From Ignavibacteriota bacterium (lineage in GTDB: Bacteria > Bacteroidota > Ignavibacteria > Tepidaquicellales > OLB5), in assembly GCA_003820375.1 (NCBI GenBank), contig RPQH01000011.1, forward strand, positions 4,783 through 68,782: a stretch of DNA of 64,000 nt. The letters run 5' to 3'. The first letter of the stretch is position 1. The number at the start of each line of letters is the position of its first letter. The notes under the pieces are model-generated. The model was not told the DNA's origin. It searched no databases and worked only from the letters and a program-made list of their open reading frames with translations. Below, piece after piece: positions 2,219 through 55,454 of the stretch. Made by a program: the position numbers and the translations under genes.

Positions 2219-2221
2219 ATT

Positions 2222-2260
2222 CTCCAAACTTTCCAAACTTTCCAAACTCTCTGAACTCTC
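2222..2260 (-). repeat. 9-nt tandem array (GAGAGTTYR family, read on the minus strand) starting at the stop codon of the desaturase gene
   Basis: The + strand reads CTCCAAACTTTCCAAACTTTCCAAACTCTCTGAACTCTC. In mRNA sense this is TAG-AGAGTTCAGAGAGTTTGGAAAGTTTGG. Confidence 0.85.
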
Positions 2261-9576: not shown

Positions 9577-12141
9577 ATGAACAAAATAAAATTTTTATTT
9601 CCGATAATACTTCTGACCGCTGTTGTGTTTTTTGTTAATATTAATAATGGTAAAAAAACAAAGCCATTAAAATTTTCAGGAGCATTAAACTCACTTGATT
9701 ACTGGGCAATGCAGAGAGCATACCCTGACAAAGTTATTCCTGATGCCGGATATTATAGTGCGTTTCAATACTCAAAACAAAATTTAAAAGGAGAAGCTGA
9801 TAACAATTTACAGCAAGGATGGGAACCGATAGGTCCGTGGAATATTGGCGGCAGAACAATATCAGTGGCAATTAACCCGTTTAACACAAATACAATATAT
9901 GCGGGCTCAGCCAGCGGCGGTTTGTGGAGAAGTTATTCAGGCGGTGTTGGTATTAGTGCATGGACAAAGCTTCAGACAGGTTTTCCCGTGCTCGGTGTCG
10001 GTGCAATTGCAATAGACCCGAATGATTCAAATACAATCTATATTGGAACAGGGGAAGTTTACGGTTACCAGAATTCCTTCGGAGGCATTACAATCAGAAC
10101 AACACGCGGAAGTTATGGAATAGGTATTTTAAAAACTACCGATGGCGGTGCAACATGGACTAAAAGCTTAGACTGGACTTACAACCAGAGACGTGGTGTT
10201 CAGGTTATTAGCATTAATCCGCAAAACCCAAATACCATATGGGCAGGTACAACTGAAGGAACATACCGTTCATATAATAAAGGGCAATCATGGGTTAAGG
10301 TAGATTCTACAATTATGGTAACAGACCTTGTAATTAATCCCCTTGATACAAATAAAGTATTCATTGCCTGCGGTAATCTTGATAGTCCCGGAAACGGCAT
10401 ATACCGGACACTCAATGCAGGCAATACATGGACAAAGCTCACAAACGGTCTGCCCGCTTCTTACGGCGGCAAGGCAGTATTTTCAATGTATAAAACTTCT
10501 CCCAATGTGATATTTGTAAGCATTGGTTTTGGAGCTAATAATAACTCTCCGACACAGCTATGCAAAACAACAAATAACGGTGATTCGTGGATTGTGGTAT
10601 CTGATATTAATTATGCCACTTACCAGGGATGGTACTCGCATTTTGTTGGGGTAAATCCAATTGATTCGAGTAAAGTCCTGACTGCCGGAATTGATATTTT
10701 TAAATCAACTAATGGGGGATATGACCTGTTTCAAAAATCGGTTTGGACTGCATGGTATTTTGGCAGGGTTCCGATTGGCGGACCTGAGGGCTCTCCTGTA
10801 TATTCACATGCAGACCACCATTGTATAACGTATCATCCAACTAATCCCGATATAATTTATTTCGGAAATGACGGCGGTGTGTTCAGAACTACAAATGGTG
10901 GTGAAACATTTGAAGGATGCAACGGGGGATACCAGTCAACACAATTTTATAATGGATTCTCAAGTGCAAGAACCGATTCATTGTTCTCAATAGGCGGAAT
11001 GCAGGATAACTCAACTGCTATTTATGACGGTGATTTAGCATGGATAAGAGTGCTTGGCGGTGACGGATGCTGGACTGCTATTAATTACAGAAATAAAGAT
11101 ACATTGTACGGTACATATCAGTATTTAAATATACTGCGGTCAACTAATATGGGAGTGGATTTTGGCAGTGTATCACCGCCGGGTAATTCAAATACATCAT
11201 TTGTTGCTCCGTTTATTGTTGGAAAAATAAACCCGCAAATAATGTATTCGGGACGTTCTGTTGTTTACAAATCCCTCAATGCAGGAGAGAGCTGGGAAAT
11301 CACGAACAATGGTGCACCGCTTGATGGTGTTAATCCTTTGCTGACCTTGGAAGCTTCTCCGGTTAATGATAATATGGTTTATGCAACTACTGCACCGTTC
11401 AGCTCAAGAGCTAAAGTGTTTAAGACAACTAATGGCGGCGATAACTGGATTGATATAACAGGAAATCTTCCTGACAGGTATATGATTGATATTGCAATTC
11501 ATCCAACAAGAGATTCTATTGCTTACATAACACTTTCCGGTTTCGGGTCTTCACACCTGTTCAGAACAACTAATGCTGGGACTAACTGGACAGATTTTAA
11601 TAACAATCTGCCGGATTTACCTACATCCGCTGTTGTCTTTGATCCTATTGACCCGCATCATATGTACGTTGGTAATGACTTAGGTGTATATGTTTCAACA
11701 GATGCAGGATTCACCTGGCAGGAATTTAAAACTGGTATGCCGGATGGCTCTATTGTTATTGATTTAGTGATTTCCCATATCAACAGGAAGCTAAGAGCTG
11801 TTACACATGGAAATGGTATTTTTGAGAGACCATTATTAGGTGTTCCAATTGGAGTTGTGAATAATCAAACAACTGTGAAAGAGTATAAGCTTTCACAAAA
11901 TTATCCAAATCCTTTTAATCCCGCTACAACGATAAAATATGATATTGCCCAAAAAGGACTTGTAACAATAAAGATATATGATATTACAGGAAGAGAAATA
12001 TCTACTCTTGTAAATGAAGTTAAGAATGTTGGCAGTTACTCGGTATTGTTCGATGCATCAAATTTAGCTTCGGGAGTGTATTTCTATAAATTATCATCGG
12101 AAGGGTTTGTGGATGTGAAGAAGATGAGTTTAGTCAAATGA
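9577..12141 (+). CDS. BNR/Asp-box repeat beta-propeller protein (sortilin/GH74-like) with T9SS C-terminal sorting domain
   Basis: 854 aa with about ten SxDxGxTW-like repeats (TTDGGATWTK, TLNAGNTWTKL, TTNGGDNWIDI, STDAGFTWQEF and others). N-terminal signal anchor. C-terminus LSQNYPNPFNP..GVYFYKL..VKKMSLVK. Confidence 0.8.
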   Translation: MNKIKFLFPIILLTAVVFFVNINNGKKTKPLKFSGALNSLDYWAMQRAYPDKVIPDAGYYSAFQYSKQNLKGEADNNLQQGWEPIGPWNIGGRTISVAINPFNTNTIYAGSASGGLWRSYSGGVGISAWTKLQTGFPVLGVGAIAIDPNDSNTIYIGTGEVYGYQNSFGGITIRTTRGSYGIGILKTTDGGATWTKSLDWTYNQRRGVQVISINPQNPNTIWAGTTEGTYRSYNKGQSWVKVDSTIMVTDLVINPLDTNKVFIACGNLDSPGNGIYRTLNAGNTWTKLTNGLPASYGGKAVFSMYKTSPNVIFVSIGFGANNNSPTQLCKTTNNGDSWIVVSDINYATYQGWYSHFVGVNPIDSSKVLTAGIDIFKSTNGGYDLFQKSVWTAWYFGRVPIGGPEGSPVYSHADHHCITYHPTNPDIIYFGNDGGVFRTTNGGETFEGCNGGYQSTQFYNGFSSARTDSLFSIGGMQDNSTAIYDGDLAWIRVLGGDGCWTAINYRNKDTLYGTYQYLNILRSTNMGVDFGSVSPPGNSNTSFVAPFIVGKINPQIMYSGRSVVYKSLNAGESWEITNNGAPLDGVNPLLTLEASPVNDNMVYATTAPFSSRAKVFKTTNGGDNWIDITGNLPDRYMIDIAIHPTRDSIAYITLSGFGSSHLFRTTNAGTNWTDFNNNLPDLPTSAVVFDPIDPHHMYVGNDLGVYVSTDAGFTWQEFKTGMPDGSIVIDLVISHINRKLRAVTHGNGIFERPLLGVPIGVVNNQTTVKEYKLSQNYPNPFNPATTIKYDIAQKGLVTIKIYDITGREISTLVNEVKNVGSYSVLFDASNLASGVYFYKLSSEGFVDVKKMSLVK

Positions 12142-12238
12142 GTGCATAGAGTGAATAGAGTGTATAGAGTGTGTTGAGTGTGTTGAGTGAATAGAGTGTG
12201 TTGAGTGTATAATAAATAGAGTGAATGGCAATTGCAGG
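12140..12238 (+). repeat. 9-nt degenerate tandem array (GAGTGNRTR family) starting inside the stop codon
   Basis: TGAGTGCATAGAGTGAATAGAGTGTATAGAGTGTGTTGAGTGTGTTGAGTGAATAGAGTG... Confidence 0.9.
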
Positions 12239-12413: not shown

Positions 12414-12458
12414 TATTGCTCATTGCTCATTGCTCATTGCTCATTGTTAATTGCAAAT
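12414..12458 (-). repeat. heptamer array (CAATGAG)n in the 3' region of T9SS paralog 1
   Basis: The + strand reads TTATTGCTCATTGCTCATTGCTCATTGCTCATTGTTAATTGCAAATG. Confidence 0.9.
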
Positions 12459-12459: not shown

Positions 12460-14250
12460 TTATTTTATCAGAGCCATTTTCTTCACATCACTAAATCCTT
12501 CGCATTCAAGCTTATAAAAATATAATCCGCTTGAATAATTCGTACCATCCCATACCACACTGTAATTGCCGGCATTTTGCTTTTCGTTTACTAATACAGC
12601 TACTTCTTTTCCCAATGCATCAAATATTGTCAGCTTCGCATAATTGTCAATTGGCAATTGATAACTGATAATTGTATTTGGATTGAACGGGTTTGGATAA
12701 TTTTGTGAAAGTGAAAATTCATCCGGTACTATGCTTTCAGGTTTTCTAATAATCCCAATCATTTGGGGAATAAAGCAAATATTAGGAAGTGTTGTCTGCA
12801 ATGCACCTGTTGTTATATCATTACACCCATCACCTGTTGTAAGGTCATTATGAGCATGATAAACCCTGCCTGTTACAGCGGTGGATTTTACTGTTGAGTT
12901 CGATGTATAACTTGAGTTATTAAAACATATTTCAATCAACAAATTTCCTCCGGTATATGTAAACGGAGTAGTGAGAGTAATAAACTGCATTCCGGTTCCG
13001 GGCATTGTAAATGCTCCGCTGTAAACTTCGGTCATTCCTGTTCCAAATCCGGATATTGTTGAAGCAGTTGTATTTTGCATCCTTATTTTAAAACCATTCA
13101 TTACCTGGGGAGCAGCAGAAATAACATCAAATCCAATTCGCATTATCGTAGCAGGGCTTGATCCTATTTCATTGGCAAGATACAGCATATCGGTTCTGGA
13201 ATCCATATAGAATGTATAGAATGGATATCCAACGGAAGTGGAACCTGTTCCCCAGCATGTCAGGAAGTAACCCGGAGGATACACTCTCACATTTGTTGAT
13301 ACGGTATCATTGCCTCTGTTTTGATCTGTTGCTAAAGCAGACACAATTTTGATATTAATAAAACCGGTATCTGCCGGAACCCAGTTAAATGTTACCGAAT
13401 CAACTGCACCTGCATTTAAGCTCATGGATATGGAATTAACCTGGGTACCCTGAATAAAGAATTTTACCGGAAAATTTGATTCGTTAGATGTACCGGTATT
13501 AGCTATCCTGGCTTTTACTTGTTTCTGCAAATTCGTATTGAAATACGCAGGTAAGCCGAGGAATGGACCTGTTGCAATATTATGAGCATATGTCTGACCT
13601 GTTCCATCGACTCTTACTCCGATAGCTTTATATTGCGAGAAGTAGTTTGTAATTGGTGCCCATGCTGACTGGATATATCCATAGCCCGGTCTCTGAGTTG
13701 TTGTAGCTGATTCATCTCCTCCTATATATTTTTGTCTATTCTCTACTGGTTGTGGATCAAAGCTAATTCCTACATAAACACTTCCGGATGTAATTGCAGG
13801 AATACCTGTTAAGTTTGTGAAATCATACCATTCTACTTGAGGCCATGTAGGAACGACAGTTACTGTCTGGTTAGGTACAGAAGCAAGTAAGTTACCCGGA
13901 GAACCGCCAGTACCTGTCTGGTCGTAGATTTCGATATCAAAGGTAAAGCTTAGTGAAGGTTGTGTTGGGTATCTTGTTAAAGCTAAGCATACCTGATTGA
14001 TAGTAAAAGGATATGATGTTGGGGTCATCAACATTACCCACTTACCAATGCCAAAGTTCGGACCCCATCCATACCCATTTTCAAATGTGTTATCATCATA
14101 GACTAATCCTCCAACACACTGCGGTCCTATTAATCCTTCAGTTCCTTTTACAAAGGGACTTCTATCATTAGCAATTTGTAAAGCCGACTGGGAATATATT
14201 AAACCGGTAAAAACTGAAAAGATGAAAAAAAGTAGAATGAGTTTTTTCAT
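12460..14250 (-). CDS. T9SS-sorted surface protein, tandem paralog 1 (unknown N-domain, CARDB-like middle domain, CTD)
   Basis: Start moved to the ATG at 14250 (MKKLILLFF, GAGG 6 nt upstream), matching the other paralogs. Conserved QCVGGLVYDDNTFENGYGW. CARDB-like VKARIANTGTSNE..NAGAVDSVTFNWVP. C-terminal LSQNYPNPFNP..GLYFYKLECEGFSDVKKMALIK. Confidence 0.85.
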   Translation of the reverse strand: MKKLILLFFIFSVFTGLIYSQSALQIANDRSPFVKGTEGLIGPQCVGGLVYDDNTFENGYGWGPNFGIGKWVMLMTPTSYPFTINQVCLALTRYPTQPSLSFTFDIEIYDQTGTGGSPGNLLASVPNQTVTVVPTWPQVEWYDFTNLTGIPAITSGSVYVGISFDPQPVENRQKYIGGDESATTTQRPGYGYIQSAWAPITNYFSQYKAIGVRVDGTGQTYAHNIATGPFLGLPAYFNTNLQKQVKARIANTGTSNESNFPVKFFIQGTQVNSISMSLNAGAVDSVTFNWVPADTGFINIKIVSALATDQNRGNDTVSTNVRVYPPGYFLTCWGTGSTSVGYPFYTFYMDSRTDMLYLANEIGSSPATIMRIGFDVISAAPQVMNGFKIRMQNTTASTISGFGTGMTEVYSGAFTMPGTGMQFITLTTPFTYTGGNLLIEICFNNSSYTSNSTVKSTAVTGRVYHAHNDLTTGDGCNDITTGALQTTLPNICFIPQMIGIIRKPESIVPDEFSLSQNYPNPFNPNTIISYQLPIDNYAKLTIFDALGKEVAVLVNEKQNAGNYSVVWDGTNYSSGLYFYKLECEGFSDVKKMALIK

Positions 14251-14302
14251 TTCAAGCCTCATTTTTTAAGTTAGGGGAAACAGCAATTTGAATATATTAT
14301 TA

Positions 14303-14330
14303 ATATTATATATTAAGCCTTTTAAGTCAA
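14303..14330 (-). promoter_or_regulatory. sigma70-type promoter for paralog 1
   Basis: The minus strand reads ATCATTGACTTAAA..TAATAT: TTGACT (14330-14325), a 16-bp spacer, then TAATAT (14308-14303). The same module recurs at 19992-20019. Confidence 0.6.
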
Positions 14331-14400
14331 TGATATTTCTTGTCTTTAACACGTTGTGATTTGTTTTCTCTCCTGTCTAACTTGTACTTGTGAAGGAAAG

Positions 14401-14464
14401 GCAATCTTTAATCTGCAATCTTTAATCTGCAATCTTTAATCTGCAATCTTTAATCTGCAATCTG
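14401..14464. repeat. 14-nt tandem array (GCAATCTTTAATCT, about 4.5 copies)
   Basis: Near-perfect direct repeats seen directly. They lie just downstream of the stop of paralog 2 in mRNA sense. The same vocabulary recurs at 59481-59555. Confidence 0.95.
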
Positions 14465-16267
14465 TTATTTAATCAATACCAGTTTCTTCACATCAGTAAA
14501 TTCATTGCATTCCAGTTTATAGAAATATAATCCTGAAGAATAATTCGTCCCATCCCATTCCACATTGTAACTTCCGGCATTTTGCTTTTCGTTTACTATT
14601 ACAGCCACTTCTCTTCCCAATGCATCGAATATTGTTAATTTCACATAATTGCTCATGGGCAATTGATAATTGATAATTGTTTTAGGATTGAATGGGTTGG
14701 GATAATTTTGTGAAAGCGAAAATTTGTCCGGTATATTATTGTTAATATTTTTCGTACCAATCATATTTGTCTGAAAGCATATATTTGGCAAATTTACCTG
14801 CACTGCTCCGGTTGTAAGATCTGTACATCCGCCTCCGTTTGGTAAATCTGAATGTTGATGAAAGATTTGCTGCCCGACAGGTGTGCTTAAAACTGTTGAA
14901 CTGGAAGCATTGCTTGAGTTGTTGAAACATATTTCGATTAACAGATTTGCGCCTGTATAAGTAAATGGAGTTGCAAGGTTAATAAACTGCCATCCTGTGC
15001 CCGGTATTGAATATGTTCCGCTATATACTTCTGTCCAGCCTGATGGTATAAATCCTGCAATTAATGTATAGGTTGTATTTTGCATCTTTATTGAGAAACC
15101 ATTCATTACTGCCTGCGGATATGCTTCTGATACATTGAATCCGATTTTCTGGATTGTTGTGCCTGCACCAAATCCAATTTGAGCAGCAGTGTATATCATC
15201 TGAGTTCTTGCATCCATATACCCTGTTTCAAATGGATAGGCTGCTGTAGTTACACCAGGACCCCAGCATGCCTGGTAAACTCCGGAAGGAAGTACATATA
15301 CTGTTGTTGTTACTGTATCGTCTGCTCTGTATTGATCTGAAGCTAAGGATGATATGACTTTAAGTATCTTTGTTCCTGTATCAGTTGGTGTCCAGCTAAA
15401 TGATACTGAATCTACTGCACCTGCATTTAAGTTCGTTGCGATTGTTGATACCTGTGTTCCATTCACTACAAATGAAATTGGAATACCTGTCTCGTTTGAT
15501 GTTCCAAAGTTTTTTATCTTTGCTTTAATAGTTTTTTGTACTCCCGTATTGAAGTATGCCGGTAAGCTAAGGAATGGACCAACACAAATGTTATGAGCAA
15601 AGTTTTGTACTATTCCATCGGCTCTTATACCAATAGCTCTGTAGCCGGAGTAGATGGTGTTCTGTATTGGCACCCAGGTTCCGGTTGTTTGAGTGTAAAA
15701 ATATCCGGCCCTTAATGGTGTTGTTGTAGATTGATCACGACCAATTAAATGTGATGTATAATATGTAACGTTATAGCTGATACCTGCATATACACTGCCT
15801 GAAGTAATGGGAGGAATACCTGTTATGCCGGCAAAATCGAACCATGTCACCGTTGGGAATGTCTGTACACCAACTGCTGTTTGATTTGGAATTATAGCAA
15901 GTAAGTTACCCGGGGAGCCGCCTGGTCCTGTATTATCATATACTACAATATCAAAGGTCCAGTCAGCTGAGCCGCTTGTTCCTTTTGTCAATGCAAAACA
16001 CAATTGATTTATTGTGTAGGGATAAGATTGCGGTGTCATCAGCATGACCCATTTATATATACTATAATAACCACTAATCCATCCACATCCGCCCTCAAAT
16101 GTATTATCATCATACACTAATCCTCCAACACATTGAGCTCCTAATATGCCTTCTGTACCTTTTTCAATATGAGTTTTATTGATTTCATCAAAAGGCAATG
16201 AATATTGTGAATAAATTAAGCAAGTAAAAATTGTTAAAGCAAAATAGAGTAGAATAAACTTTTTCAT
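14465..16267 (-). CDS. T9SS-sorted surface protein, tandem paralog 2
   Basis: 600 aa with the same domain order as 12460-14250. Signal peptide MKKFILLYFALTIF. T9SS CTD ..GLYFYKLECNEFTDVKKLVLIK. Confidence 0.85.
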   Translation of the reverse strand: MKKFILLYFALTIFTCLIYSQYSLPFDEINKTHIEKGTEGILGAQCVGGLVYDDNTFEGGCGWISGYYSIYKWVMLMTPQSYPYTINQLCFALTKGTSGSADWTFDIVVYDNTGPGGSPGNLLAIIPNQTAVGVQTFPTVTWFDFAGITGIPPITSGSVYAGISYNVTYYTSHLIGRDQSTTTPLRAGYFYTQTTGTWVPIQNTIYSGYRAIGIRADGIVQNFAHNICVGPFLSLPAYFNTGVQKTIKAKIKNFGTSNETGIPISFVVNGTQVSTIATNLNAGAVDSVSFSWTPTDTGTKILKVISSLASDQYRADDTVTTTVYVLPSGVYQACWGPGVTTAAYPFETGYMDARTQMIYTAAQIGFGAGTTIQKIGFNVSEAYPQAVMNGFSIKMQNTTYTLIAGFIPSGWTEVYSGTYSIPGTGWQFINLATPFTYTGANLLIEICFNNSSNASSSTVLSTPVGQQIFHQHSDLPNGGGCTDLTTGAVQVNLPNICFQTNMIGTKNINNNIPDKFSLSQNYPNPFNPKTIINYQLPMSNYVKLTIFDALGREVAVIVNEKQNAGSYNVEWDGTNYSSGLYFYKLECNEFTDVKKLVLIK

Positions 16268-16297
16268 GACTTACCTAATATATTATTTTTAAAAAAT

Positions 16298-18079
16298 TTA
16301 TTTAATTAGTACTAACTTCTTTACATCACTAAATCCTTCGCATTCCAGTTTATAGAAATATAACCCTGAAGAATAATTCGTCCCATCCCACTCTACACTG
16401 TAACTTCCGGCATTTTGCTTTTCGTTTACTAATACAGCTGCGTTTTTTCCTAATGCATCAAATATTGTCAGCTTAACATAATTGCTAATTGGCAATTGAT
16501 AACTGATAATTGTTTTTGGATTGAATGGATTGGGATAATTTTGTGAAAGTGAAAATTCTTTTGGTATTTCACTTTGTATTTTCCTGTTATTTCCATTCCA
16601 GATAATTAAACAAATATTCGGGCGTGTTGTTTGGGTACTGCCTGTTGTAATATTTATACACCCGTCTCCGGATGAAAGGTCTTCGTGTTTGTGATATACT
16701 TTTCCGGAAAACGTTGTTGATGCTACAGTTGAATTTTGTGAATATCCTCCATTATTAAAGCATACTTCTATTAATAGATTTGTACCATTATAAACAAATG
16801 GAGTATCAAGAGTTATCCACCTCCATCCTGTGCCGGGTACAGTATAAGTACTGCTGTAAACTATATGCCAACCTGTTTGAGGAAATCCGGAAACCGTAGT
16901 ATTAGTCGTATTCTGCATCTTAATTTTGAAACCGGACATTGTAGCAGGAGCTGCAGTCATAACATCAAAAGCAATATTAGTAATAATTGCAGGCCTGCCG
17001 TCATTTCCAATTTCATTTGCAAGATAGAGCATATCGGTTTTTGAATCCATGTAAAATGTATAGAAGGGATATCCGGCAGGTAATGCGCCGGTACCTATAC
17101 AGCTGTTTATTGCTCCCTGTGAATTCACCGTAACATTTATTGAAGCTGTATCATTGCCTCTGAATTGGTCGTTTGATAAAGCTGCAACTACTTTCAGGTT
17201 GTTGTTTCCAGCTTCTGCAGGTGTCCAATTAAAGCTTACGGAATCAACAGCACCTGTATTTAAATTTTTGTTTACGGTAAATAAATGAATTCCGTTAACG
17301 AAGAATTTAAACGGTACACCTGTTTCATTTGAAGTGCCCATGTTGGTTACTTTAGCTTTAATTACAGATTGAGTACCTAATGTAAATAATTCCGGAATAG
17401 AAAGAAAAGGACCTGCTTTAATATTATGAGAATAAATGACATCTGCAGTATCAACCCTGATACCAACAGCTCTATTTGAAGGAAAGAATGATTGAATTGT
17501 ACCCCATGTGTTCTGTATATATCCATATCCAAGTCTTGCAGGAGTTGTTGGGCTTTCATCAGCAGCAAGGTATCGCCCTGACATTGTTGAAGGATTCCAG
17601 CTAAGACCCACGTAATAACTTCCCGAATTTAATACAGGTATAGATATAATTTGATCAAAATCAAACCATGTTACCGCCGGCCAGACTGGAACATTTACTG
17701 CTGTTTGATTGACAATGCCGGTTATTAAGTTACCTGGTCTTCCATTTGTTCCTGTTGTATCATAAACTTCAATATCAAATATCCAATCCGCTCCTGAATT
17801 TCCTGTAAGCGCAAAACAAATCTTACCGATTTTATATGGGTATGATGAAGGAGTAAATTTTAAAACCCATTTTCCAATACCATAACCGGGATTCCAGCCG
17901 TAACCGTTTTCCCATGTGTTGTCATCATATACTATGCCGCCAACACATTGAGCACCAATTAATCCTTCGTTACCCTTAATAAAAGGCACATTTCCATTTG
18001 TAATTTGAGCAGCGGGTTGAGAATATATTATGCTAGTAAAGACTAATAATGCAAAAATAAGTAAAATTAGTTTTTTCAT
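16298..18079 (-). CDS. T9SS-sorted surface protein, tandem paralog 3
   Basis: 593 aa paralog. The intergenic gap to its neighbours is 30-34 nt, which suggests an operon. GAGGT lies upstream of the ATG. Confidence 0.85.
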   Translation of the reverse strand: MKKLILLIFALLVFTSIIYSQPAAQITNGNVPFIKGNEGLIGAQCVGGIVYDDNTWENGYGWNPGYGIGKWVLKFTPSSYPYKIGKICFALTGNSGADWIFDIEVYDTTGTNGRPGNLITGIVNQTAVNVPVWPAVTWFDFDQIISIPVLNSGSYYVGLSWNPSTMSGRYLAADESPTTPARLGYGYIQNTWGTIQSFFPSNRAVGIRVDTADVIYSHNIKAGPFLSIPELFTLGTQSVIKAKVTNMGTSNETGVPFKFFVNGIHLFTVNKNLNTGAVDSVSFNWTPAEAGNNNLKVVAALSNDQFRGNDTASINVTVNSQGAINSCIGTGALPAGYPFYTFYMDSKTDMLYLANEIGNDGRPAIITNIAFDVMTAAPATMSGFKIKMQNTTNTTVSGFPQTGWHIVYSSTYTVPGTGWRWITLDTPFVYNGTNLLIEVCFNNGGYSQNSTVASTTFSGKVYHKHEDLSSGDGCINITTGSTQTTRPNICLIIWNGNNRKIQSEIPKEFSLSQNYPNPFNPKTIISYQLPISNYVKLTIFDALGKNAAVLVNEKQNAGSYSVEWDGTNYSSGLYFYKLECEGFSDVKKLVLIK

Positions 18080-18113
18080 TTCTTACCTCATAGAAAAAAA
18101 ATTACTTAAAATT

Positions 18114-19940
18114 TTATTTTAATAACATAATTTTCTTTACATCGGTAAAACCATCACATTCTATTTTTAGAAAATATAACCCGCTCGCAAAATTCGTGCC
18201 ATCCCACTCCACATCGTAAGTGCCGGGTGTTTGCTTTTCATTTACAAGTGCGGCAACAACTTTTCCCAAAGCATCATAAATAACAAGCTTTACTTCACTG
18301 CTAACCGGCAATTGATAACTGATAATTGTTTTAGGATTGAATGGATTGGGATAATTTTGTGAAAGTGAAAATTCTTTTGGTATTTCATTTTGTGTCCCAT
18401 TCACTCCGACCATACATGGTGGATTAGGATTTAAATTTGTCGGGTAACCCTGGAAACATATATTTGGTAATGTAGCCTGAACAGTACCGGCTGTAATCAT
18501 AACACAACCATCTCCCGCAGAAATATCCTGGTGGTTGTGAAAAACTCTATTAGGATTTGATGTTGACGCTATTGTAGTACTTGATGTATAACTTGAATTG
18601 TTGAAGCAAATTTCAATTAAAAGATTGCAATTTGAATTATAATAAAACGGAGTTGATAAATATATCCATTGCAACCCGGTTGATGAAACAGAATAAGTTC
18701 CGCTATAAACTTCAGTCCACCCTGTTGAAACAAATCCGGTCAATGATGTCAAAGGTGTATTCTGCATTTTTATCTTAAAACCATTCATAACCTGTGGAGC
18801 TGCTGACAAAACTGTAAAGCCAATTTTAGTTATCACACTTAAATTAACTCCTATTTCACTTGCCAGGTAAAGAAAATCTGTTCTTGAATCCATATAAAAT
18901 GTATAAAAAGGATATTGAACTGCAATAGAACCTGTACCGTAACAAGGACTATAATAACCGGGAGGATATACATGCACAATTGTAGATACTGTATCATTAG
19001 CTCTGTATTCATCAGTTACCAATGCAGAAACAATTTTTAAAATAAAGTTTCCCGTATCTGCAGGCGTCCAGTTAAAAGCTACTGAATCTACTGCATTAGC
19101 ATTCAGGGATGTTATGATTAAGCTATTAACCTGAGTACCATTAACAAAGAATTTCATCGGGATATTTGATTCATTGGATGTACCGAGATTTTTTACTTTT
19201 GCTTTTATTACTTTCTGTACATTTACATTATACAATCCCGGTAAACTAAGGAACGGACCTGTTGCAATATTATGAGTATAAGTAACACCTGTACCATCAC
19301 ACCTTACACCGATAGCTTTATAGTTTGGGTAATATGTTTGAATACCTGCCCATGCACTTTGAATATATCCGTAGCCGGGTCTTAATATTGTTGTAGGGCT
19401 TTCATCAGCAGCAATATAATGAGATGGCATGGTTGCCGGGTCATAACTGATACCTACATAATAACTCTGCCCTGTTGTTAATGGAGGGACACCGGTTAAG
19501 CCGGTAAAATCAAACCATGTTACATTAGGCCATATCGGTACACCTGTTGCAGTCTGATTTGCAATAGTATGAACTAATGTTCCCGGACCGCCGCCTGTTC
19601 CGGTTGCATCATAAAATACAATATCAAAAGTAAAATTAGCTGAACCTGCGGCTACTCTCGTAAGAGCTAAGCAAACCTGATTGATTGTGAATGGGTAATC
19701 AGCCGGGGTCATTTTCATAGCCCATTTACCAATACCGTAACCGGCATTCCATCCATACCCGTTTTCCCATGTGTTGTCATCATAAACTAATCCGCCAACA
19801 CATTGAGCCCCGAGCATTCCTTCATTGCCTTTTATAAAAGGTGTATTATCATTTGCAAGCTGAGATGCAGGTTGAGAATATAAAGTATTTAAAGAAACTA
19901 TAGCTGAGAAGAGTAAAGACAGTAAAATGAGCTTTTTCAT
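18114..19940 (-). CDS. T9SS-sorted surface protein, tandem paralog 4 (first gene of the 3-gene operon)
   Basis: 608 aa paralog. GAGGTAAAAAATG ribosome-binding context. T9SS CTD ..GLYFLKIECDGFTDVKKIMLLK. Confidence 0.85.
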   Translation of the reverse strand: MKKLILLSLLFSAIVSLNTLYSQPASQLANDNTPFIKGNEGMLGAQCVGGLVYDDNTWENGYGWNAGYGIGKWAMKMTPADYPFTINQVCLALTRVAAGSANFTFDIVFYDATGTGGGPGTLVHTIANQTATGVPIWPNVTWFDFTGLTGVPPLTTGQSYYVGISYDPATMPSHYIAADESPTTILRPGYGYIQSAWAGIQTYYPNYKAIGVRCDGTGVTYTHNIATGPFLSLPGLYNVNVQKVIKAKVKNLGTSNESNIPMKFFVNGTQVNSLIITSLNANAVDSVAFNWTPADTGNFILKIVSALVTDEYRANDTVSTIVHVYPPGYYSPCYGTGSIAVQYPFYTFYMDSRTDFLYLASEIGVNLSVITKIGFTVLSAAPQVMNGFKIKMQNTPLTSLTGFVSTGWTEVYSGTYSVSSTGLQWIYLSTPFYYNSNCNLLIEICFNNSSYTSSTTIASTSNPNRVFHNHQDISAGDGCVMITAGTVQATLPNICFQGYPTNLNPNPPCMVGVNGTQNEIPKEFSLSQNYPNPFNPKTIISYQLPVSSEVKLVIYDALGKVVAALVNEKQTPGTYDVEWDGTNFASGLYFLKIECDGFTDVKKIMLLK

Positions 19941-20019: not shown

Positions 20020-20594
20020 TGATAAATCGTGTCTTAAAATACACATGCATTTGTTCTTAATTAAATTCATTTCCATTCTCATTGTTTTCCCTGCATTCCC
20101 ACCATATATCATTCCCCTGACTGATGCAGTCAGGGGAATGACATGTGTTAGGTAAGCGGGGAATGACACGGGGTGACATACAGTAAAAATCAGAGTTGGG
20201 TTCAAAACAGTGCGGAGATGGGTTCAAGTTGTGCCGGAGTTGGGGTCAAGTTAGTATCCAGTTGGGTTATCGTTTTTCAAAAACAGGGGTTAACTCATTG
20301 CAGTATAAGGAGATAACGCCGTCAGAGATGTGAGATTTTTGATTTAAAATTGGCGATTTCGAGCCGGAATCACCAATTTTTCATCATAATAAAACTTCAC
20401 TATATCATTAACCATTATCGTTATGGGAAAATTTTGGCAGCAAATTATTGTCGCTGATGTTGGAGAGTTAAAGTAATACTTTAAGGATTATCCGGCTCAT
20501 TTCAGGACACACCCCGTCTTATCAATTCCGTAGAACGGAATTGATAATCCACCCCTCTCGAGAGGGGAATCCTTTGATTTTTAAGCTCTAAATA

Positions 20595-20636
20595 CACCTC
20601 TCCTCCCAGGAGAGGGGAAAGGGGTGAGGTTTTTTC
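20595..20636 (+). terminator. GC-rich hairpin plus T6 inside the variable spacer of element copy A
   Basis: CCTCTCC (20597-20603) / GGAGAGG (20609-20615), then ..GGGGTGAGGTTTTTT. It is preceded by a perfect 13-bp hairpin (20519-20547) and the palindrome CCCCTCTCGAGAGGGG (20552-20567). Confidence 0.45.
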
Positions 20637-20645
20637 ACAAAAAAC

Positions 20646-20674
20646 TTGACAATTAGTAATTACTATATTAAATT
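20646..20674 (+). promoter_or_regulatory. conserved orphan promoter of element copy A
   Basis: TTGACA (20646-20651), a 17-bp spacer ending CTATAT, then TAAATT (20669-20674). The same arrangement occurs at 40874-40902 and 59130-59158. Confidence 0.7.
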
Positions 20675-20854
20675 ATATAGTGATGCTTATATATCAGTAT
20701 AAGCATAAATAATCGTTCTTTGACAAAATCGTAAATTAGAAAGTTATGTCGTTTGTTAATGTAAGGAATGGAGTCACGAAAATAGTTAGATTTTACACAG
20801 ATGAAAAAAATATGTATTGAAAAATGCACTAAAATAATTTTATCAGGAAATCAT

Positions 20855-28822: not shown

Positions 28823-28891
28823 ATAACGAAACTCCTTCATTATAAATTGTATTTAATATAATAAATCATCATTTTTGATTAGATGAATTAA

Positions 28892-28955
28892 TCAAATTTA
28901 TCAGATTCATCAGATTTATCAGATTCGCAATTGGCAATTCGCAATTCGAAATTGA
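28892..28955 (+). repeat. 9-nt (CAGATTYAT) then 7-nt (CAATTSG) tandem arrays upstream of the tRNA
   Basis: TCAAATTTATCAGATTCATCAGATTTATCAGATTCGCAATTGGCAATTCGCAATTCGAAATTG. Confidence 0.9.
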
Positions 28956-29038: not shown

Positions 29039-29145
29039 AATTACGAATGACGAATGACGAGTTACGAATGAAGAATTACGAATTACGAATGACGAATTAC
29101 GAATGACGAATGACGAATTACGAATGACGAATTACGAATGACGAG
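29039..29145. repeat. heptamer array (ACGAATK)n, about 15 units
   Basis: TTACGAATGACGAATGACGAGTTACGAATGAAGAATTACGAATTACGAATG... It abuts the stop codon of the minus-strand gene 29146-29811. Its units are the reverse complement of the CAATTCG units left of the tRNA. Confidence 0.95.
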
Positions 29146-29811
29146 TTAACCTTTCAACCTGTAACCTGCAGCCACTCTGTGCCTGTCAACCCAATAAGCC
29201 CACAATACAAGCAGCCATTGTGTTAATCCAAGATAAGCAATAGATTTAACATCGGGCGGCGGCGGACCCATGATATTTCCAAAATAAATAATTACAAGAA
29301 AAACTATCAAAGCCCAAAAGGCATATGTGCCAATTTTATCTTTTGCAGATGTTGCAGAGATATAAAACCAAACTCCAAGGATGAAAATAACTGACTCAAG
29401 TATAATAGCAATAACCGGTGAATTCCACAATCCAAAGCCGACATTTGGTCCGGATGTAAGAAGAGGCAGGTCAGGGCGGTGTACAAACAGGTCAAGCACC
29501 CAGTGGCTTAATACCAATAAACCTACAATCAATGAATTCTTTACATTTCTTTTAATAAAGAAATAAATACCTCCAATAATAATACTCCATGCGAGTACAA
29601 AAATTAAGCTGTGGCTGTAGGGATAATCCGAAAAATTTAATGGTGTCATTATAGTATCACCCGGATTTATGACAACATGTTCAATTCCGAATAAGAGCAG
29701 CAATGGCCAAAGCAAATCAAGCCATTGAGAAGCAAGGAACAATGTTCCTAACGAAACCTGCGGAGCCGGTTTTTTGCCGGCTAATCCTGCACCAAAATGA
29801 CCTATAAACAT
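29146..29811 (-). CDS. multi-pass membrane protein, unknown function
   Basis: 221 aa and hydrophobic, with N-terminus MFIGHFGAGLAGKK. The ORFs that overlap it are short. Confidence 0.65.
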   Translation of the reverse strand: MFIGHFGAGLAGKKPAPQVSLGTLFLASQWLDLLWPLLLLFGIEHVVINPGDTIMTPLNFSDYPYSHSLIFVLAWSIIIGGIYFFIKRNVKNSLIVGLLVLSHWVLDLFVHRPDLPLLTSGPNVGFGLWNSPVIAIILESVIFILGVWFYISATSAKDKIGTYAFWALIVFLVIIYFGNIMGPPPPDVKSIAYLGLTQWLLVLWAYWVDRHRVAAGYRLKG

Positions 29812-30038
29812 ATATAATTTTTTTAATTTGCGGAAATTAACTTTGTATTTTTAAAAGTTCAATAACTTTAAAAAAATTCCAATTGATCCTGTCATTCCTT
29901 CCTGCAATCTTCCAATTGCAGCCAACAAGCTTGTAACCTTTAACCGCTTAAACCATCTAATTTAATGTAAAGGATATTTATTGATACTGACTGCTCTTTA
30001 AATTATATTGCATGAGAATCATAATAAAAAAGCTTTAA

Positions 30039-30971
30039 TTGCAAATGGAAAATAAGTTTTCCTATGAAAAAACTTTAAAAACAAAGCCGGGTGAATCATT
30101 CCTGAATTTTCAATCGTATTTACTTGTCACAGCCGGCTCCATTACAAAAGCTTTATATTACACTCCCGTTACACCTCATCAGGTTATTTTGTTTTCACTT
30201 GTATTGGGAATAGCTTCATCGGTATTGCTGATTCAGAATAATATTTATCTTGTAATTTTGGGTGCGGTTTTTCTTTTCTATAAAAATGTATTTGATAAGG
30301 TTGACGGTTCTTTGGCACGTGCCAAAAATATGACAAGCAGAAGAGGAAGATTTTATGATTCAATTTCGGATTTTATAGTATCGTTAAGCTTGTTTATTGC
30401 AATCGGCTTTAAACTGTATGAAAAATATAATGATTGGTTTGTATTTGTAATTAGTTTTCTTGGATTGCTTTTTTCAATGCTCCAGTGTTCGTTCTTTATA
30501 TATTATGAGGTAGCTTTTATAAAACAATCCGGAAAAGAAACAATAAACCGGCTGCTTGAAAATATTACTGAGGCAGATAAACAGCATGAAGATAAGTTCA
30601 CTTTATTCCTGCAAAAAGTGTTTTTAATTATATACGGCTGGCAGGATTGGATTGTGAATAAAACAGATAAATACCTGTTTAATAAAACGAAAAAGAGCTT
30701 AAAACCGGGTGATAACAGTGAGTCAAATTTAGAAGCTATATGGTATATGAATAAACCTTTTTTAACAATTGCCAGCATTTTTTCCATTGGTTCACATATG
30801 GTTTTAATTGCTGTATTTTCAATAGCGGGGAAGATTGAGTACTATCTTTTTGTGAATTTAATATTATGGAATTTATTGTTAGGTTTATCAATTATTTATC
30901 AGTATTATTCCGTTAAAAACAGGATAAAACGGTCAGGAAATGGTATTTATAACAAGAAAATTTCATTTTAG
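30039..30971 (+). CDS. CDP-alcohol phosphatidyltransferase family protein
   Basis: The signature DGx2ARx8Gx3Dx3D is present as DKVDGSLARAKNMTSRRGRFYDSISDF. Multi-pass membrane protein. Confidence 0.8.
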   Translation: MQMENKFSYEKTLKTKPGESFLNFQSYLLVTAGSITKALYYTPVTPHQVILFSLVLGIASSVLLIQNNIYLVILGAVFLFYKNVFDKVDGSLARAKNMTSRRGRFYDSISDFIVSLSLFIAIGFKLYEKYNDWFVFVISFLGLLFSMLQCSFFIYYEVAFIKQSGKETINRLLENITEADKQHEDKFTLFLQKVFLIIYGWQDWIVNKTDKYLFNKTKKSLKPGDNSESNLEAIWYMNKPFLTIASIFSIGSHMVLIAVFSIAGKIEYYLFVNLILWNLLLGLSIIYQYYSVKNRIKRSGNGIYNKKISF

Positions 30972-34866: not shown

Positions 34867-36654
34867 ATGAAATTAATACAATCGTGTATAACTCTTCTTG
34901 TAATTCTTGCTGCCGGAAGCCCTGTTTTATCACAAAGAACTATTGATGATATAACGACAGTTGCTGAGTTTAAACAGTATGCCCGTTTAATGGCACCAAA
35001 TGAAAATGCTTTTGTGGCAGTGCAAAGGATTGCAAAAGAATATCTGGACAGTAAAGACTGGCAGGGTGCTGCACAGGTATTTGCCGCGTACAGCAAGCTA
35101 TTTCCTAATATGAATGAGCGTTTTGCAAAGATAGATTCGCTTTTGAAAGCATCTCCGCAAAATTTAATACTTACTAATCTAAGGGTAATAAATTCAAGTG
35201 ATGATGAATATTTTCCTGTAATTACAATAGATGAGAACCGTATATATTTTACCGGAAGCAGCAGAAAAGATAATATCGGCGGCGAAGATATCTTTTACTC
35301 CGACAGGATAAACGAGAAATGGACTAAGGCAAAGTTATTACCGGCCCCCTTCAGCACATATGAAAATGATGCTGTTAACAGTGTATCTGCAGACGGGATT
35401 ATTCTCGTTGTCTTTGGTACGTATAAAGGTGCAATCGGCGAAGGGGATAACTTTTATTCCGAAAGAACCGCTTCGGGATGGTCTGCAATAAAACCGTTTC
35501 AAGTTCCGGTTAATTCCAAGTACTGGGATTGTGACGGGTTTCTTTCTGCCGATGGCAAAGCATTCTTTTTTGTAAGTGACAGACCCGGGGGAACCGGTGA
35601 GTTCAACAGGAGCGGTTATCCTTTCCATGGTGATATACAAGGTAACACTGATATTTATGTTTGCGTCAAAAATGATTCAGGCTGGTCTGCTCCAATCAAT
35701 CTTGGCACTTATGTTAACACGCCTTATTCAGAACGCTCGCCTTTCCTGCATCCAGATGGAAGGACATTGTATTTTTCATCTGACGGCTTTTACGGACTTG
35801 GTGAGCTTGATGTATTTAAGACTGTCAGGTTAAATGATACCTCATGGACAGAATGGGGTAAACCGGTAAATCTCGGTAAAGATATTAATACAAGCGGAAC
35901 GGATATTGCATATAAGATTTCAACAAAAGGTGAACTCGCTTATTTTTCAACAAATTATTCCGGCGGTGAAGGCGGGTATGACATTTATTCGATAACACTT
36001 CCGCCTGAAGCAAGACCGCAAAGAAATGTGGTTGCCGTTAAAGGAAAAGTAACCGATGAAAATGATAATCCGCTTGATGCAAATATCAATTGGGCGGATA
36101 TTTCTTCTAACACAAATGTCGGAGCTTTAAAATCGGACCCTGTAACCGGCGATTATATCATCGTACTTCCTGTAGGGAAAGTTTACAGCTATTTTGCAGA
36201 TAAGCAGGGTTATTACTCGGTTTCAAATGAAGTGAATCTTTCGGATAAAACCGAATACTCGGAAATGAATGTTGATATAAAAATGATTGCTGTTAAATCA
36301 CTTGAGGAAACAGCAATAAAGCTAAATAATATTTATTTTGATTTTGATAAATATGACCTGAAGCCTGAATCATTCAGTGAACTGGAGAGAGTGTATAAAT
36401 TTCTCACAGATAATCCTGAAATTAAAGTAGAGATATCTGCACATACAGATGCAATAGGCAGCGAAGAATATAATATGGGACTTTCACAAAAGCGTGCACA
36501 AAGTGTTGTTGATTATCTTATCAGCATTGGTATCAATCAGGACAGGTTGATTGCAAAAGGTTACGGTAAAAGCCAGCCTGTAGCAGATAATGGTACCGAA
36601 GAAGGCAGAGCATTAAACAGAAGAGTGGAAATGAAAATAGTTAAGAGTCTATAG
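34867..36654 (+). CDS. OmpA-family protein with TolB-like repeats (paralog of the preceding gene)
   Basis: 595 aa, collinear with 32982-34793. Signal peptide. ..SAHTDAIGSEEYN..NRRVEMKI. Confidence 0.85.
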   Translation: MKLIQSCITLLVILAAGSPVLSQRTIDDITTVAEFKQYARLMAPNENAFVAVQRIAKEYLDSKDWQGAAQVFAAYSKLFPNMNERFAKIDSLLKASPQNLILTNLRVINSSDDEYFPVITIDENRIYFTGSSRKDNIGGEDIFYSDRINEKWTKAKLLPAPFSTYENDAVNSVSADGIILVVFGTYKGAIGEGDNFYSERTASGWSAIKPFQVPVNSKYWDCDGFLSADGKAFFFVSDRPGGTGEFNRSGYPFHGDIQGNTDIYVCVKNDSGWSAPINLGTYVNTPYSERSPFLHPDGRTLYFSSDGFYGLGELDVFKTVRLNDTSWTEWGKPVNLGKDINTSGTDIAYKISTKGELAYFSTNYSGGEGGYDIYSITLPPEARPQRNVVAVKGKVTDENDNPLDANINWADISSNTNVGALKSDPVTGDYIIVLPVGKVYSYFADKQGYYSVSNEVNLSDKTEYSEMNVDIKMIAVKSLEETAIKLNNIYFDFDKYDLKPESFSELERVYKFLTDNPEIKVEISAHTDAIGSEEYNMGLSQKRAQSVVDYLISIGINQDRLIAKGYGKSQPVADNGTEEGRALNRRVEMKIVKSL

Positions 36655-36786
36655 AGTTCAGAGAGTTTAGAGAGTATAGAGAGTTCAGAGAGTTTGGAGA
36701 GTTCGGAGAGTTCGGAGGGTTCAGAGAGTTCAGAGAGTTCAGAGAGTTCAGAGGGTTCAGAGAGTTCGGAGAGTTCGGAGAGTTTA
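36653..36786 (+). repeat. 9-nt tandem array (GAGAGTTYR), about 15 units, starting in the stop codon
   Basis: TAGAGTTCAGAGAGTTTAGAGAGTATAGAGAGTTCAGAGAGTTTGGAGAGTTCGGAGAGTTCGG... Confidence 0.95.
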
Positions 36787-40151: not shown

Positions 40152-40161
40152 TTTCTTTCCC

Positions 40162-40292
40162 CTCCTTCCCAAGTTGTACTTGGGAAGGAAATTGAGTTTG
40201 AAATTGTATTTCAATCTTTGATCTCCAATGCTGCTGATGTGTAAGTTCAACTTACAGTACATTTTACTTCCCAAGTACAACTTGGGAAGGAG
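40162..40292. repeat. MITE-like unit bounded by a 26-bp inverted repeat
   Basis: CTCCTTCCCAAGTTGTACTTGGGAAG (40162-40187) and its reverse complement at 40267-40292. Each arm is itself a hairpin. A related word, AACTTGTACTTGTGAAGG, occurs near 14375. Confidence 0.75.
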
Positions 40293-40411
40293 GAAAAGCA
40301 ACTGCCAAAGGCAGTCAAGCCAACAACGGGTAACTAATCAAACCCGTCACTGTCTCAAAAATGCCGCCCGCCTGTACGGGCAGACATGTGGATTTTCTCC
40401 ACAAAAAACCG

Positions 40412-41047
40412 GAGTTGGGTTCAAAACAGTGCTAAGTTAGGTTCAAGTTGTGTCGGAGTTGGGTTCAAGTTGGCATCAAGTTGGGTCATCGTTTTTGGAA
40501 AACAGGGGTTAACTCATTGCAGTATAAGGAGATAACGCCATCAAAAATATGAGATTTTCGATTAAAGATTTGCGATTTTGAGCCGGAAACGGCATTTTTC
40601 TAGCAAAATAAAACTTCACTATATCATTAACCATTATCGCTATGGGAAAAATTTGGTAGCAGATAATTGTCGCTGATGTTGGAGGAGTTAAAGTATTACT
40701 TGAAGGTATTTCCGGTTTATTTTATTCACATCCCGGTCTAATCGCATATTGATTCTTCTTACTTCTAACCTCTGATATATAACTTCTTATAATTGTAAAT
40801 CCTGCTAAAATTGATGGGATTGCCACGCTTTGCTCGCAATTGTGCTTAACATCCAACTATTTTCACCAAAAACTTGACAATAAGCAATTACTATATTAAT
40901 TTAATGTAGTAGTGATTATCATCACTCAGTAACGTTCTTTGATAAAATAGAGATGAATTTATACATGTCGTAATATTGTATGAAAATACTGCTCACTAAT
41001 TTGGTTAGATTTTGGAAGTTTGAAAAAAATATGTACTGAAAAATACC
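40412..41047 (+). repeat. ORF-free modular element, copy B
   Basis: Same order of modules as copy A. Islands identical to A include GGGGTTAACTCATTGCAGTATAAGGAGATAACGCC (40505-40539) and AAAACTTCACTATATCATTAACCATTATCG. Confidence 0.85.
40874..40902 (+). promoter_or_regulatory. conserved orphan promoter of element copy B
   Basis: TTGACA (40874-40879), 17 bp ending CTATAT, TAATTT (40897-40902). Confidence 0.7.
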
Positions 41048-41050
41048 TAA

Positions 41051-41172
41051 AGAGTCAGGAGTTCAAGAGTCTGGAGTCGGGAGTCTGAGAGTTGAGAATC
41101 TAAGAGTTTGAAAGTCAGAGTTATAAGTTCGGGAGTTGAGAGCTATAAGTTTTAAAGTTGCGGGTTATGAGC
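41051..41172 (+). repeat. degenerate 7-9-nt array (GAGTYNR words)
   Basis: GAGTCAGGAGTTCAAGAGTCTGGAGTCGGGAGTCTGAGAGTTGAGAATCTAAGAGTTTGAAAGTCAGAG... Confidence 0.8.
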
Positions 41173-52233: not shown

Positions 52234-52269
52234 TTAAGAAATAAAACGTAACTTATAAGAATTTTATTA

Positions 52270-52321: not shown

Positions 52322-52372
52322 ATCCCCTGATATGCTAAATGTAAGTTTTTAAAAACTTTTATTTGTAATCTT

Positions 52373-55435: not shown

Positions 55436-55454
55436 ATTTGTTATAGTATTTAAG

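Follow-up and report, generated by a model that had tools for sequence, protein, structure and literature searches.

Candidate promoter-bearing non-coding cassettes with phased repeats and a boxA-like leader, dispersed in one Ignavibacteria lineage

We analyzed a 64,000-nucleotide stretch of an Ignavibacteriota bacterium genome (contig RPQH01000011.1 of assembly GCA_003820375.1, positions 4,783 to 68,782; "the window" below always means this whole stretch), in which three homologous + strand copies of a non-coding element can be aligned over ~640 bp. Our searches place them in a family of ~40 copies per genome, divided into two subfamilies and found in one Ignavibacteria lineage, and by the same searches the cassette matches no described RNA or mobile-element family among those tested. 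The explanation that we favor, giving it about an even chance, is that of a promoter-carrying non-coding cassette, in which a transcription unit resembling the boxA-bearing leader of ribosomal RNA (rrn) operons is joined to a 5' platform for a protein.

A first-pass annotation, made from the letters of the window alone, had reported the three copies, and alignment and nhmmer found them at essentially the same places: copy A at 20188-20832 (HMM positions 2-644, E = 6e-142), copy B at 40407-41047 (E = 1e-143) and copy C at 58698-59310 (E = 5e-144), the repeat array of the last starting at ~58689-58694. Two words, TTGCAGTATAARGAGATAAC from a conserved island and GAGTTAAAGTAWTACTTNAAGG, each occur three times in the window, with none expected. 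The wider copy search that the annotation had proposed showed the family to be far larger than three: 49 matches to a 20-nt island word in metagenome contigs left, after removal of duplicates, ~38 distinct full-length copies of 553-703 bp. All but one of the metagenome matches came from two JGI assemblies of a single population, with a flanking protein 100% identical to one encoded by the NCBI metagenome-assembled genome 'Ignavibacteriae bacterium' (locus tag EHM58); a match in an ENA metagenome (L040) was a chance match and not a family member. The nhmmer matches were full length except where a contig end cut them, and many contigs stop inside the element, as fits a high-copy repeat that breaks assemblies. 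The sole clearly truncated copy (locus L042, 1056-1340) holds the first ~280 nt of an element, after which a minus-strand gene abuts.

The annotation had overlooked that the copies fall into two subfamilies with different repeat words, T1 (including A and B) and T2 (including C and the truncated copy), which coexist in one genome and share a common set of conserved blocks. Mean identity is 76% among T1 copies, 71% among T2 copies and 52% between T1 and T2; recombinant forms (T1b) combine a T1 array with a T2-like middle. Outside the metagenomes, the 20-nt island word had no match in viral contigs or in 185,579 species genomes, where a relaxed three-block pattern gave five matches, all by chance; further scans of viral contigs gave chance matches only, and plasmid and phage records showed no similarity. 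Scans for patterns, partner genes and dimers were run on the collected loci, 515 kb in all.

The 3' third is, to judge from its sequence, the best-supported functional part of the element. In copy A the promoter region (20626-20674) runs from an UP-like A/T tract (..TTTTTTCACAAAAAAC) to a -35 hexamer TTGACA at 20646-20651, a 17-bp spacer and a -10 hexamer TAAATT at 20669-20674; the corresponding -35 hexamers lie at 40874-40879 in copy B and 59130-59135 in copy C. TTGACA is present in 37 of the 38 copies, and all 37 have TAnnTT exactly 17 bp on (TAAATT, TATTTT, TAATTT, TACATT or TATATT). Directly 5' of the -35 hexamer stands AAAAAC or TAAAAC in 30 of the 37, and before that AAACTATTTT, with the look of an UP element. 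The consensus promoter described in the annotation is thus present, with its -35 confirmed, but the TATATT that it took for the -10 was wrong, lying only 12 bp from the -35; at 17-bp spacing the correct hexamer is TAAATT or TAATTT.

Right after the presumed start, in a boxB-like position, lies a leader hairpin (20683-20706 in copy A), represented in the family by at least six unrelated sequence variants, all of which fold (mean z = -3.0 over 36 copies). It is followed by a block that the annotation had passed over, the boxA-like CGTTCTTTGACAAA at 20714-20727 (40933-40941 in copy B, 59199-59207 in copy C). Its family form, CGTTCTTTG(A/T)NAAT, occurs in 34 of 37 copies, 30 or 39-40 nt past the -10, and the most diverged copy reads TGTTCTTTGAAAAT. 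Promoter and boxA-like block combined into one pattern were found 40 times within elements and never elsewhere in the 515 kb. The CGTTCTTTG block agrees with positions 1-7 of the published boxA consensus GYTCTTTAANA (PMC5725501); the literature yielded no usable non-proteobacterial boxA sequence for comparison. In rrn operons boxB and boxA stand "just after promoter P2" (PMC10250234), and the Escherichia coli rrnH leader TGCTCTTTAACAA agrees in the boxA core and has the same order of promoter, hairpin and boxA. Position and context make the putative boxA identity more credible.

Beyond the boxA-like block, an RNA body of ~110 nt (20728-20832) is conserved across T1 in the blocks ..GTCGT.., CTCACG..TTGGTTAGATTTTGG and GAAAAAAATATGTATTGAAAAATGCACT. 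What is conserved is sequence and not structure: minimum free energy (MFE) z-scores range from -1.6 to +0.75, and RNAalifold returns no pairs for T1 and, for T2, a weak fold that lacks compensation. The 3' unit as a whole would drive a largely unstructured RNA of ~150 nt. An IS200/IS605-derived PATE with an omega/reRNA, which would carry subterminal hairpins at its two ends and a ~150-nt RNA of high structure at the 3' end, was considered and rejected on these same z-scores, together with the lack of a consensus structure and of any HEARO or omega-type match in Rfam.

The same blocks recur in a related genome. Locus L051 (SRR22334931) has the gene order of the copy A region, its flanking 418-aa protein being 71% identical to that of the window, and keeps ~115 nt of the 3' part of copy A at the same position and in the same orientation before the contig ends within the element; the retained blocks are CGTTCTTTG, GTCG, CTCACG..TTGGTTA and GAAAAAATATGTA. 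Because neutral intergenic DNA should be unrecognizable at 71% protein identity, the 3' blocks are evidently under constraint. Of the identities that the annotation had offered for the element, that of a dispersed non-coding RNA gene family fits this 3' third best, with its promoter, hairpin, boxA-like block and conservation in a relative.

Other comparisons show the element missing. At the copy A locus, more distant relatives (61% identity) have another gene within ~50 bp instead. Copy C is missing upstream of metG in three relatives whose methionyl-tRNA synthetases (MetRS) are 87, 85 and 79% identical to that of the window, the closest of them coming from the sample (SRR22334931) that holds L051. 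Copy B is missing in relatives at 86, 81 and 75% identity, and in locus L190 the same two convergent genes stand 22 bp apart at an empty site, vs. 1,177 bp in the window. On this comparative evidence, individual sites have acquired or lost copies as related species diverged.

The 5' part opens at a boundary that is sharp across the 38 copies, an A-run followed by (T/C)C, and continues into seven or eight repeats, 11-bp-phased and specific in their word to the subfamily. In copy A the T1 array (20188-20271) repeats the word (G/A)AGTTGGGTTCA, with autocorrelation of 0.55 at lag 22 and 0.39 at lag 11; every second unit is degenerate, which produces the 22-bp period. The annotation had described GGG words in 22-bp steps, and these stand where it put them, at 20198, 20220, 20242 and 20264 by autocorrelation scan and at 20286 by reading of the sequence. 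The underlying period is 11 bp, as shown by the lags (22 bp best in A and B, then 11; 11 bp best in C) and by the 11-bp calls of TRF, alternate units being degenerate in A and B. The T2 array of copy C (58689-58781) has ~8 units of YGGGCACTNNN in exact 11-bp period (0.67 at lag 11; TRF call at 58689-58775), and inverted copies of its repeat follow at 58821-58834 and 58896-58909. In T2 the last repeat unit pairs with these downstream inverted copies, so that the island lies between perfect arms of 11-14 bp; the T1 arms around the island are weaker and in another register, several copies having mismatched arms and one a double compensatory change.

After the array comes an AT-rich palindrome, GTTTTTCAAAAAC (20272-20284, strand unassigned), which the annotation had listed as a module and which is there, but conserved only in part, with the family consensus TTTTT-NN-AAAA. 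The 27-bp island follows, TAACTCATTGCAGTATAAGGAGATAAC in copy A (20291-20317; also 40510-40536 and 58797-58823), reading TAACTYATTGCAGTATAARGAGATAAC in the family and equal in T1 and T2 except at three variable positions. Downstream, GCGATT (20353-20358) is invariant, and the gap to it from GCAGTATAA is exactly 44 nt in 38 of 38 copies, while the sequence within that gap is completely different between T1, T1b and T2. A potential partner of GCGATT, (T)GTCGC, lies at 20449-20454, but the pairing GCGAT:GTCGC is unchanged in 36 of 36 copies and hence uninformative as a pair.

The next conserved block, GAGTTAAAGTAATACTTTAAGG (20465-20486; three window matches, none expected), contains what had been called a 17-bp palindrome: its sequence is conserved, its pairing is not, the outer positions varying without compensation. 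The inverted pair GAGCCGG/CCGGCTC, also proposed earlier, is weak (mean 6.4 of 9 pairs), often broken and without compensatory change. A variable spacer (20516-20625) then begins after CACACCCC (20508-20515); it had been said to be filled with unrelated hairpins, and it does hold inverted repeats and the highest diversity in the element (pi 0.43-0.47). It also contains REP-like insertions, and many copies have C-rich 9-mer repeats there. Read in the 5' to 3' direction, the order is array, TTTTT-NN-AAAA, island, GCGATT, TGTCGC, GAGTTAAAGTNATACTT, CACACCCC, variable spacer and 3' module. An invariant block peculiar to T1, AAAACTTCACTATATCATTAACC at 20391-20420, resembles the promoter core minus its spacer (cf. 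AAAACTTGACAA..CTATATTAA) and shows, across 18 nt, 83% complementarity with the start-site region 20671-20688.

Several further features were sought in the 5' part and rejected: a sigma-54 or extracytoplasmic function (ECF) promoter in the island (by inspection, its spacing suits T1 and not T2), a promoter at the A-run boundary (no conserved -35), a minus-strand promoter near GCGATT (good in T2 only and hence not general), and a type-specific recurrence of the last 5' repeat unit near the 3' end (local alignment scores equal to the shuffled baseline). A nucleoprotein assembly site would be the most natural reading of the phased repeats.

The absence of coding sequence, asserted in the first-pass annotation, was upheld: six-frame analysis of the 38 copies found no conserved open reading frame (ORF) in any frame and no conserved start codons, diversity by codon phase showed no 3-nt periodicity, and recurrent peptides had no Pfam match. 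Nor does Rfam hold a significant match. At the gathering threshold the whole window gave just a tRNA and a DUF805b RNA motif (RF02914, at 5-39 of the window, 41.4 bits, over its gathering score), while copies A and C, searched with cut-offs of E <= 10 and E <= 5, returned only chance matches below threshold and ARAGORN gave nothing. A check for covariation, of the sort that had been proposed, turned out negative. RNAalifold, applied to 3' and 5' segments in all copies and per subfamily, yielded 0-5 pairs across subfamilies; an all-pairs covariation scan of both strands gave no support; and a structure confined to T2 had 2 compensatory pairs vs. 1.4 in shuffled alignments, with 65-222 of 500 shuffles as high. 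In MFE z-scores against mononucleotide shuffles (27 copies), the 5' region of T2 is stable on the + strand (-1.0 to -4.4, mostly below -2.3) and that of T1 is near 0, the T2 stability being due to the inverted repeat copies.

From the two parts together we infer transcription, Nus binding, a fate for the RNA and a role for the repeats along the following lines. RNA polymerase would start at the promoter of the 3' module; boxA in the nascent RNA would recruit NusB and NusE (S10), giving an elongation complex that resists Rho; and the weakly structured product of ~150 nt would reach the 3' edge of the element, there to end in a C-poor tail, as after ordinary genes, or to read into the neighboring gene, more often antisense. 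The 5' ~330 bp would most likely be a platform for a sequence-specific protein encoded elsewhere in the genome, built from the 11-bp-phased repeats, the AT palindrome, the 27-bp island and GCGATT at rigid spacing, and this protein may regulate the cassette or move it. Gain and loss at single intergenic sites would proceed by a mechanism that leaves neither inverted ends nor a target duplication.

Several points weigh against this explanation. The promoter, the start site and the RNA ends are all deduced from sequence, and the RNA body has neither a significant fold nor covariation. The boxA match is one of a 7-8-nt core, for which we roughly estimate at ~5% the chance that one conserved block would match by accident. 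A distance of ~370 bp separates the phased array from the promoter, which is long if it were to act as a classical operator. The invariance of the island outside the window is partly a matter of ascertainment, since those copies were fished with the island word. Finally, antisense downstream genes outnumber sense ones by 19 to 9 (by 18 to 12 when the ORF cut-off is lowered), which is not a significant excess.

The proposal of a non-autonomous mobile element, made in the first-pass annotation, draws its only support from the presence and absence of copies among relatives, and its most familiar form, a miniature inverted-repeat transposable element (MITE) now inactive and derived by deletion from an insertion sequence (IS) with a DDE transposase, is largely refuted and in our estimate most improbable. 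The multiple intergenic copies, their sharp ends and the assembly breaks would also suit it. Against it, the first 45 nt share with the reverse complement of the last 45 a longest word of 4.8 nt (4.7 nt when shuffled), so that there is no terminal inverted repeat (TIR); the junction word within a copy averages 5.89 nt vs. 5.87 nt between different copies, so that there is no target-site duplication (TSD); and no longer, transposase-bearing relative with the same ends was found in the 515 kb of loci, plasmids, phages or viral contigs. The copies are moreover old, at 52-76% identity, yet all full length with conserved internal blocks, which neutral decay would not yield and which is unlike a decaying MITE family. 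The missing TIR and TSD would on the other hand suit another unlikely form of mobility, in which a circular or tandem form moves or expresses the element and the chromosomal copies are circularly permuted. Transcription in such a form would cross the 3'/5' junction into the repeats and island and stop at the hairpins and C-rich repeats before the promoter, giving a Rho-resistant RNA of ~600 nt, while an iteron-binding recombinase or a HUH nuclease, provided in trans, would act at the repeats and at the island presented in a hairpin. The module order fits, the promoter being directly preceded by terminator-like hairpins and C-rich 9-mers; boxA normally serves long untranslated transcripts; the island sits between inverted arms that differ in sequence by subfamily (GGGCAGGAGTT/AACTCCTGCCC in T2, GGGGTTAAC/GATAACGCC in T1), one copy having the double compensatory change in them; the repeat words are subfamily-specific, like Rep-iteron pairs; and the 5' repeats of T1 are similar in composition to the repeats of the 3' tails. 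Yet neither the 515 kb nor the viral contigs contained a tandem dimer, a circle junction or a partner gene, the island arms are often mismatched, 5' and 3' parts have no significant similarity, and the old, diverged copies give no sign of recent activity. The resemblance to rrn leaders could also be literal, the copies being remnants or duplicates of the upstream region of an rRNA (or tRNA) operon, spread by recombination and detached from the rRNA gene. This we think quite unlikely, even though the E. coli rrnH P2 leader has an equal layout (promoter, hairpin, boxA, then ~110-135 nt), an UP-like A-tract accompanies a perfect -35, and in many copies GAGAGTTYR repeats come after a terminal ..CTAAAGAGTT.., much like the 5' end of 16S rRNA (AAGAGTTTGATC): rRNA sequence is in none of the loci, ~38 copies with unique flanks far exceed any number of rRNA operons, and GAGAGTTYR repeats also follow ordinary protein genes, so that the 16S resemblance may be accidental.

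The 5' part with its phased repeats could be the functional core, a chromosomal nucleoprotein site (a parC-type centromere, an iteron origin or operator, or a silencing or organizing site) on whose 11-bp-phased repeats a protein would polymerize, the promoter being secondary. The period of exactly 11 (or 22) bp over ~85 bp speaks for it, as do the rigid spacing of array, island and GCGATT in both T1 and T2 and the inverted copies in T2, which enclose a second AT palindrome in a palindromic site that overlaps a TATAAT on the minus strand; iteron plasmids combine direct repeats with just such operator logic. But no par or rep gene stands beside any copy, the iterons are one-sided and remote from the conserved promoter, T1 has neither the inverted copies nor the minus-strand promoter, and a centromere or an origin would not be expected at ~40 sites per chromosome. 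The strongly conserved 3' transcription unit, kept in L051, would be left unexplained. We see only a slim chance for this core. A slimmer one remains for the whole 640 bp, or its 5' 330 nt, being a large structured RNA of the GOLLD/ROOL/OLE kind, with conserved junctions between variable stems. Conserved blocks at rigid spacing with variable sequence between them are what such an RNA would show, and hairpins of different sequence do occupy one position (island to GCGATT) in T1, T1b and T2; on the + strand the 5' region of T2 is more stable than its shuffled versions, and many changes from G-U to G-C are tolerated. However, covariation equals shuffled values and RNAalifold finds nothing across subfamilies, the T1 z-scores lie near 0, no promoter was found for the 5' part, the internal consensus promoter splits the unit, and no Rfam family matches.

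The neighbors of the element differ from copy to copy, in agreement with its description in the annotation as an autonomous, modular unit with unrelated flanking genes: among them are genes of a glycogen phosphorylase operon, an exonuclease, MetRS, cargo of the type IX secretion system (T9SS), a sigma factor and ExbD. An association with gene function was accordingly rejected, upstream and downstream genes being functionally unrelated. Downstream, the distance to the next gene is usually 20-300 nt; on the upstream side the intergenic DNA extends further and is rich in other repeats. Copies A and C lie beside the ends of two tandem arrays (12460-19940 on the - strand and 50863-56873 on the + strand) of four paralogous T9SS cargo genes each, for ~600-aa CARDB proteins and ~460-aa GSDH-like proteins; in a relative (L062) there is a single GSDH gene and the element is missing at that locus.

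C-poor tandem-repeat tails follow the element on the + strand after copy B (41050-41170) and copy C (59361-59440), as called by TRF, and occur within 110 nt of 14 of the 38 copies, with a C content of 0-15% in 13 of the 14. Their likeness to the tails after genes and a tRNA suggests that the 3' edge of the element behaves like a gene end. Such tails, of 7-, 9- and 14-bp units (GAGAGTTCR, GAGTGTGTA, AATGACG), stand directly after gene stop codons and after tRNA-Arg at window positions 2221-2260, 12140-12226, 12415-12454, 14401-14464, 28887-28925, 29039-29148, 36653-36784, 58518-58688 and 59481-59554, at ~560-700 of locus L063, and in the relative ERR4335697. On the sense strand of the preceding gene they contain little C, which makes the opposite strand pyrimidine/C-rich, and they are possibly a genome-wide 3'-end feature, serving as a terminator or as a block to antisense read-in.

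Other small repeats are dispersed around the element. A repetitive extragenic palindrome (REP)-like hairpin CCTTCCCAAGTTGTACTTGGGAAGG and a module CTCTCC..GGAGAGGGG..GGGGTGAGGTTTT occur at window positions 40160-40185, 40268-40295 and 20597-20635 and in the upstream flanks of L017, L019, L024 and L027; the CTCTCC module also sits inside the variable spacer of copy A. In L007 and L019, 100-800 bp 5' of the element, ~50-bp tandem arrays contain the hairpin ATCATCCCTTCGGGATT, whose module also occurs upstream of several T1 and T2 copies (L025, L033, L047). At 29993-30003 a boxA-like GCTCTTTAAAT, which has no relation to the element, precedes the gene at 30039..30971 by ~35 nt.

If the cassette is what we favor, a free-living bacterium would keep ~40 individually conserved units of promoter and rRNA-style antitermination with no gene attached, and boxA/Nus biology would reach well beyond rRNA, suhB and CRISPR leaders. 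The cassettes would then be natural, portable, Rho-resistant transcription units, with a bearing on genome plasticity, transcriptional insulation and antisense control in a phylum that has received little study. A phased array whose word depends on the subfamily would imply a sequence-specific binding protein with two specificities, and the family is probably a practical cause of assembly breaks in these metagenome-assembled genomes. We hold out little hope for a more far-reaching outcome, which would be either a new kind of element, making a ~600-nt Nus-protected RNA only from an excised circle or tandem and served by a trans-acting iteron-binding recombinase or HUH-type enzyme that recognizes the 11-bp repeats and the hairpin-presented island, or a host-wide system of ~40 boxA-armed promoters for Rho-resistant read-out or antisense transcription.

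Among known systems, the type I toxin-antitoxin repeats LDR/Ldr-Rdl and Sib/Ibs of E. coli are likewise repeated units (~500 bp), each equipped with promoters and small RNAs of its own, and at first sight seem free of ORFs. Unlike them, the element has no conserved small ORF in any frame and no conserved convergent promoter pair, and membership in this class, whose mark is a conserved small hydrophobic ORF together with an antisense RNA, was rejected because no frame is both open and conserved across subfamilies and start codons are not conserved.

Closer to the element, though each has just a part of its design, are plasmid iteron arrays, rrn/boxA leaders and mobile promoter-bearing intergenic repeats. 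Among the iteron arrays, R1 parC has 11-bp iterons around the parMR promoter, and iteron origins combine direct repeats (22 bp, or 17-22 bp more generally) and an AT-rich stretch with a rep gene whose operator is an inverted repeat; the element shares the 11- or 22-bp period, an adjacent AT-rich palindrome, a type-specific word and, in T2 only, inverted copies near a promoter-like site. It differs in being chromosomal, in ~40 copies, with an array that is one-sided and ~370 bp from the promoter; a rep gene was found beside none of 38 copies, and par genes adjacent to none. The analogy to R1 parC drawn in the first-pass annotation thus holds for the phasing and fails for the layout, the neighbors being housekeeping genes and T9SS cargo.

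With the boxA leaders of rrn operons, which support the NusB/NusE-dependent antitermination complex (rrnTAC), and with those of other untranslated transcripts, the 3' module shares a strong sigma-70 promoter with an A-tract upstream of the -35, a hairpin, and a single-stranded G(Y)TCTTT(R)A ~40 nt past the start. It departs from them in having no rRNA or recognizable product downstream in any locus, in its ~40 copies per genome, in a downstream sequence that is copy-specific, and in position 8 of boxA, which is G and not A, a form that is presumably found in many non-proteobacterial rrn leaders.

The general manner of the element is that of the Correia elements of Neisseria and of putative mobile promoters, which are intergenic, non-coding and variably present, and carry an outward promoter next to unrelated neighbors. 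Like these repeats, its copies are homologous intergenic non-coding segments with an outward promoter, unrelated neighbors and variable presence; unlike them, it is far longer (640 bp), has no inverted ends, and its copies are old and individually conserved. To our knowledge, neither a phased repeat array nor a boxA-like leader has been described for Correia-type elements. With a probability that we again put near the midpoint, we regard these copies as a new, lineage-restricted family of promoter-bearing non-coding cassettes, kin to the dispersed promoter-bearing non-coding repeats.

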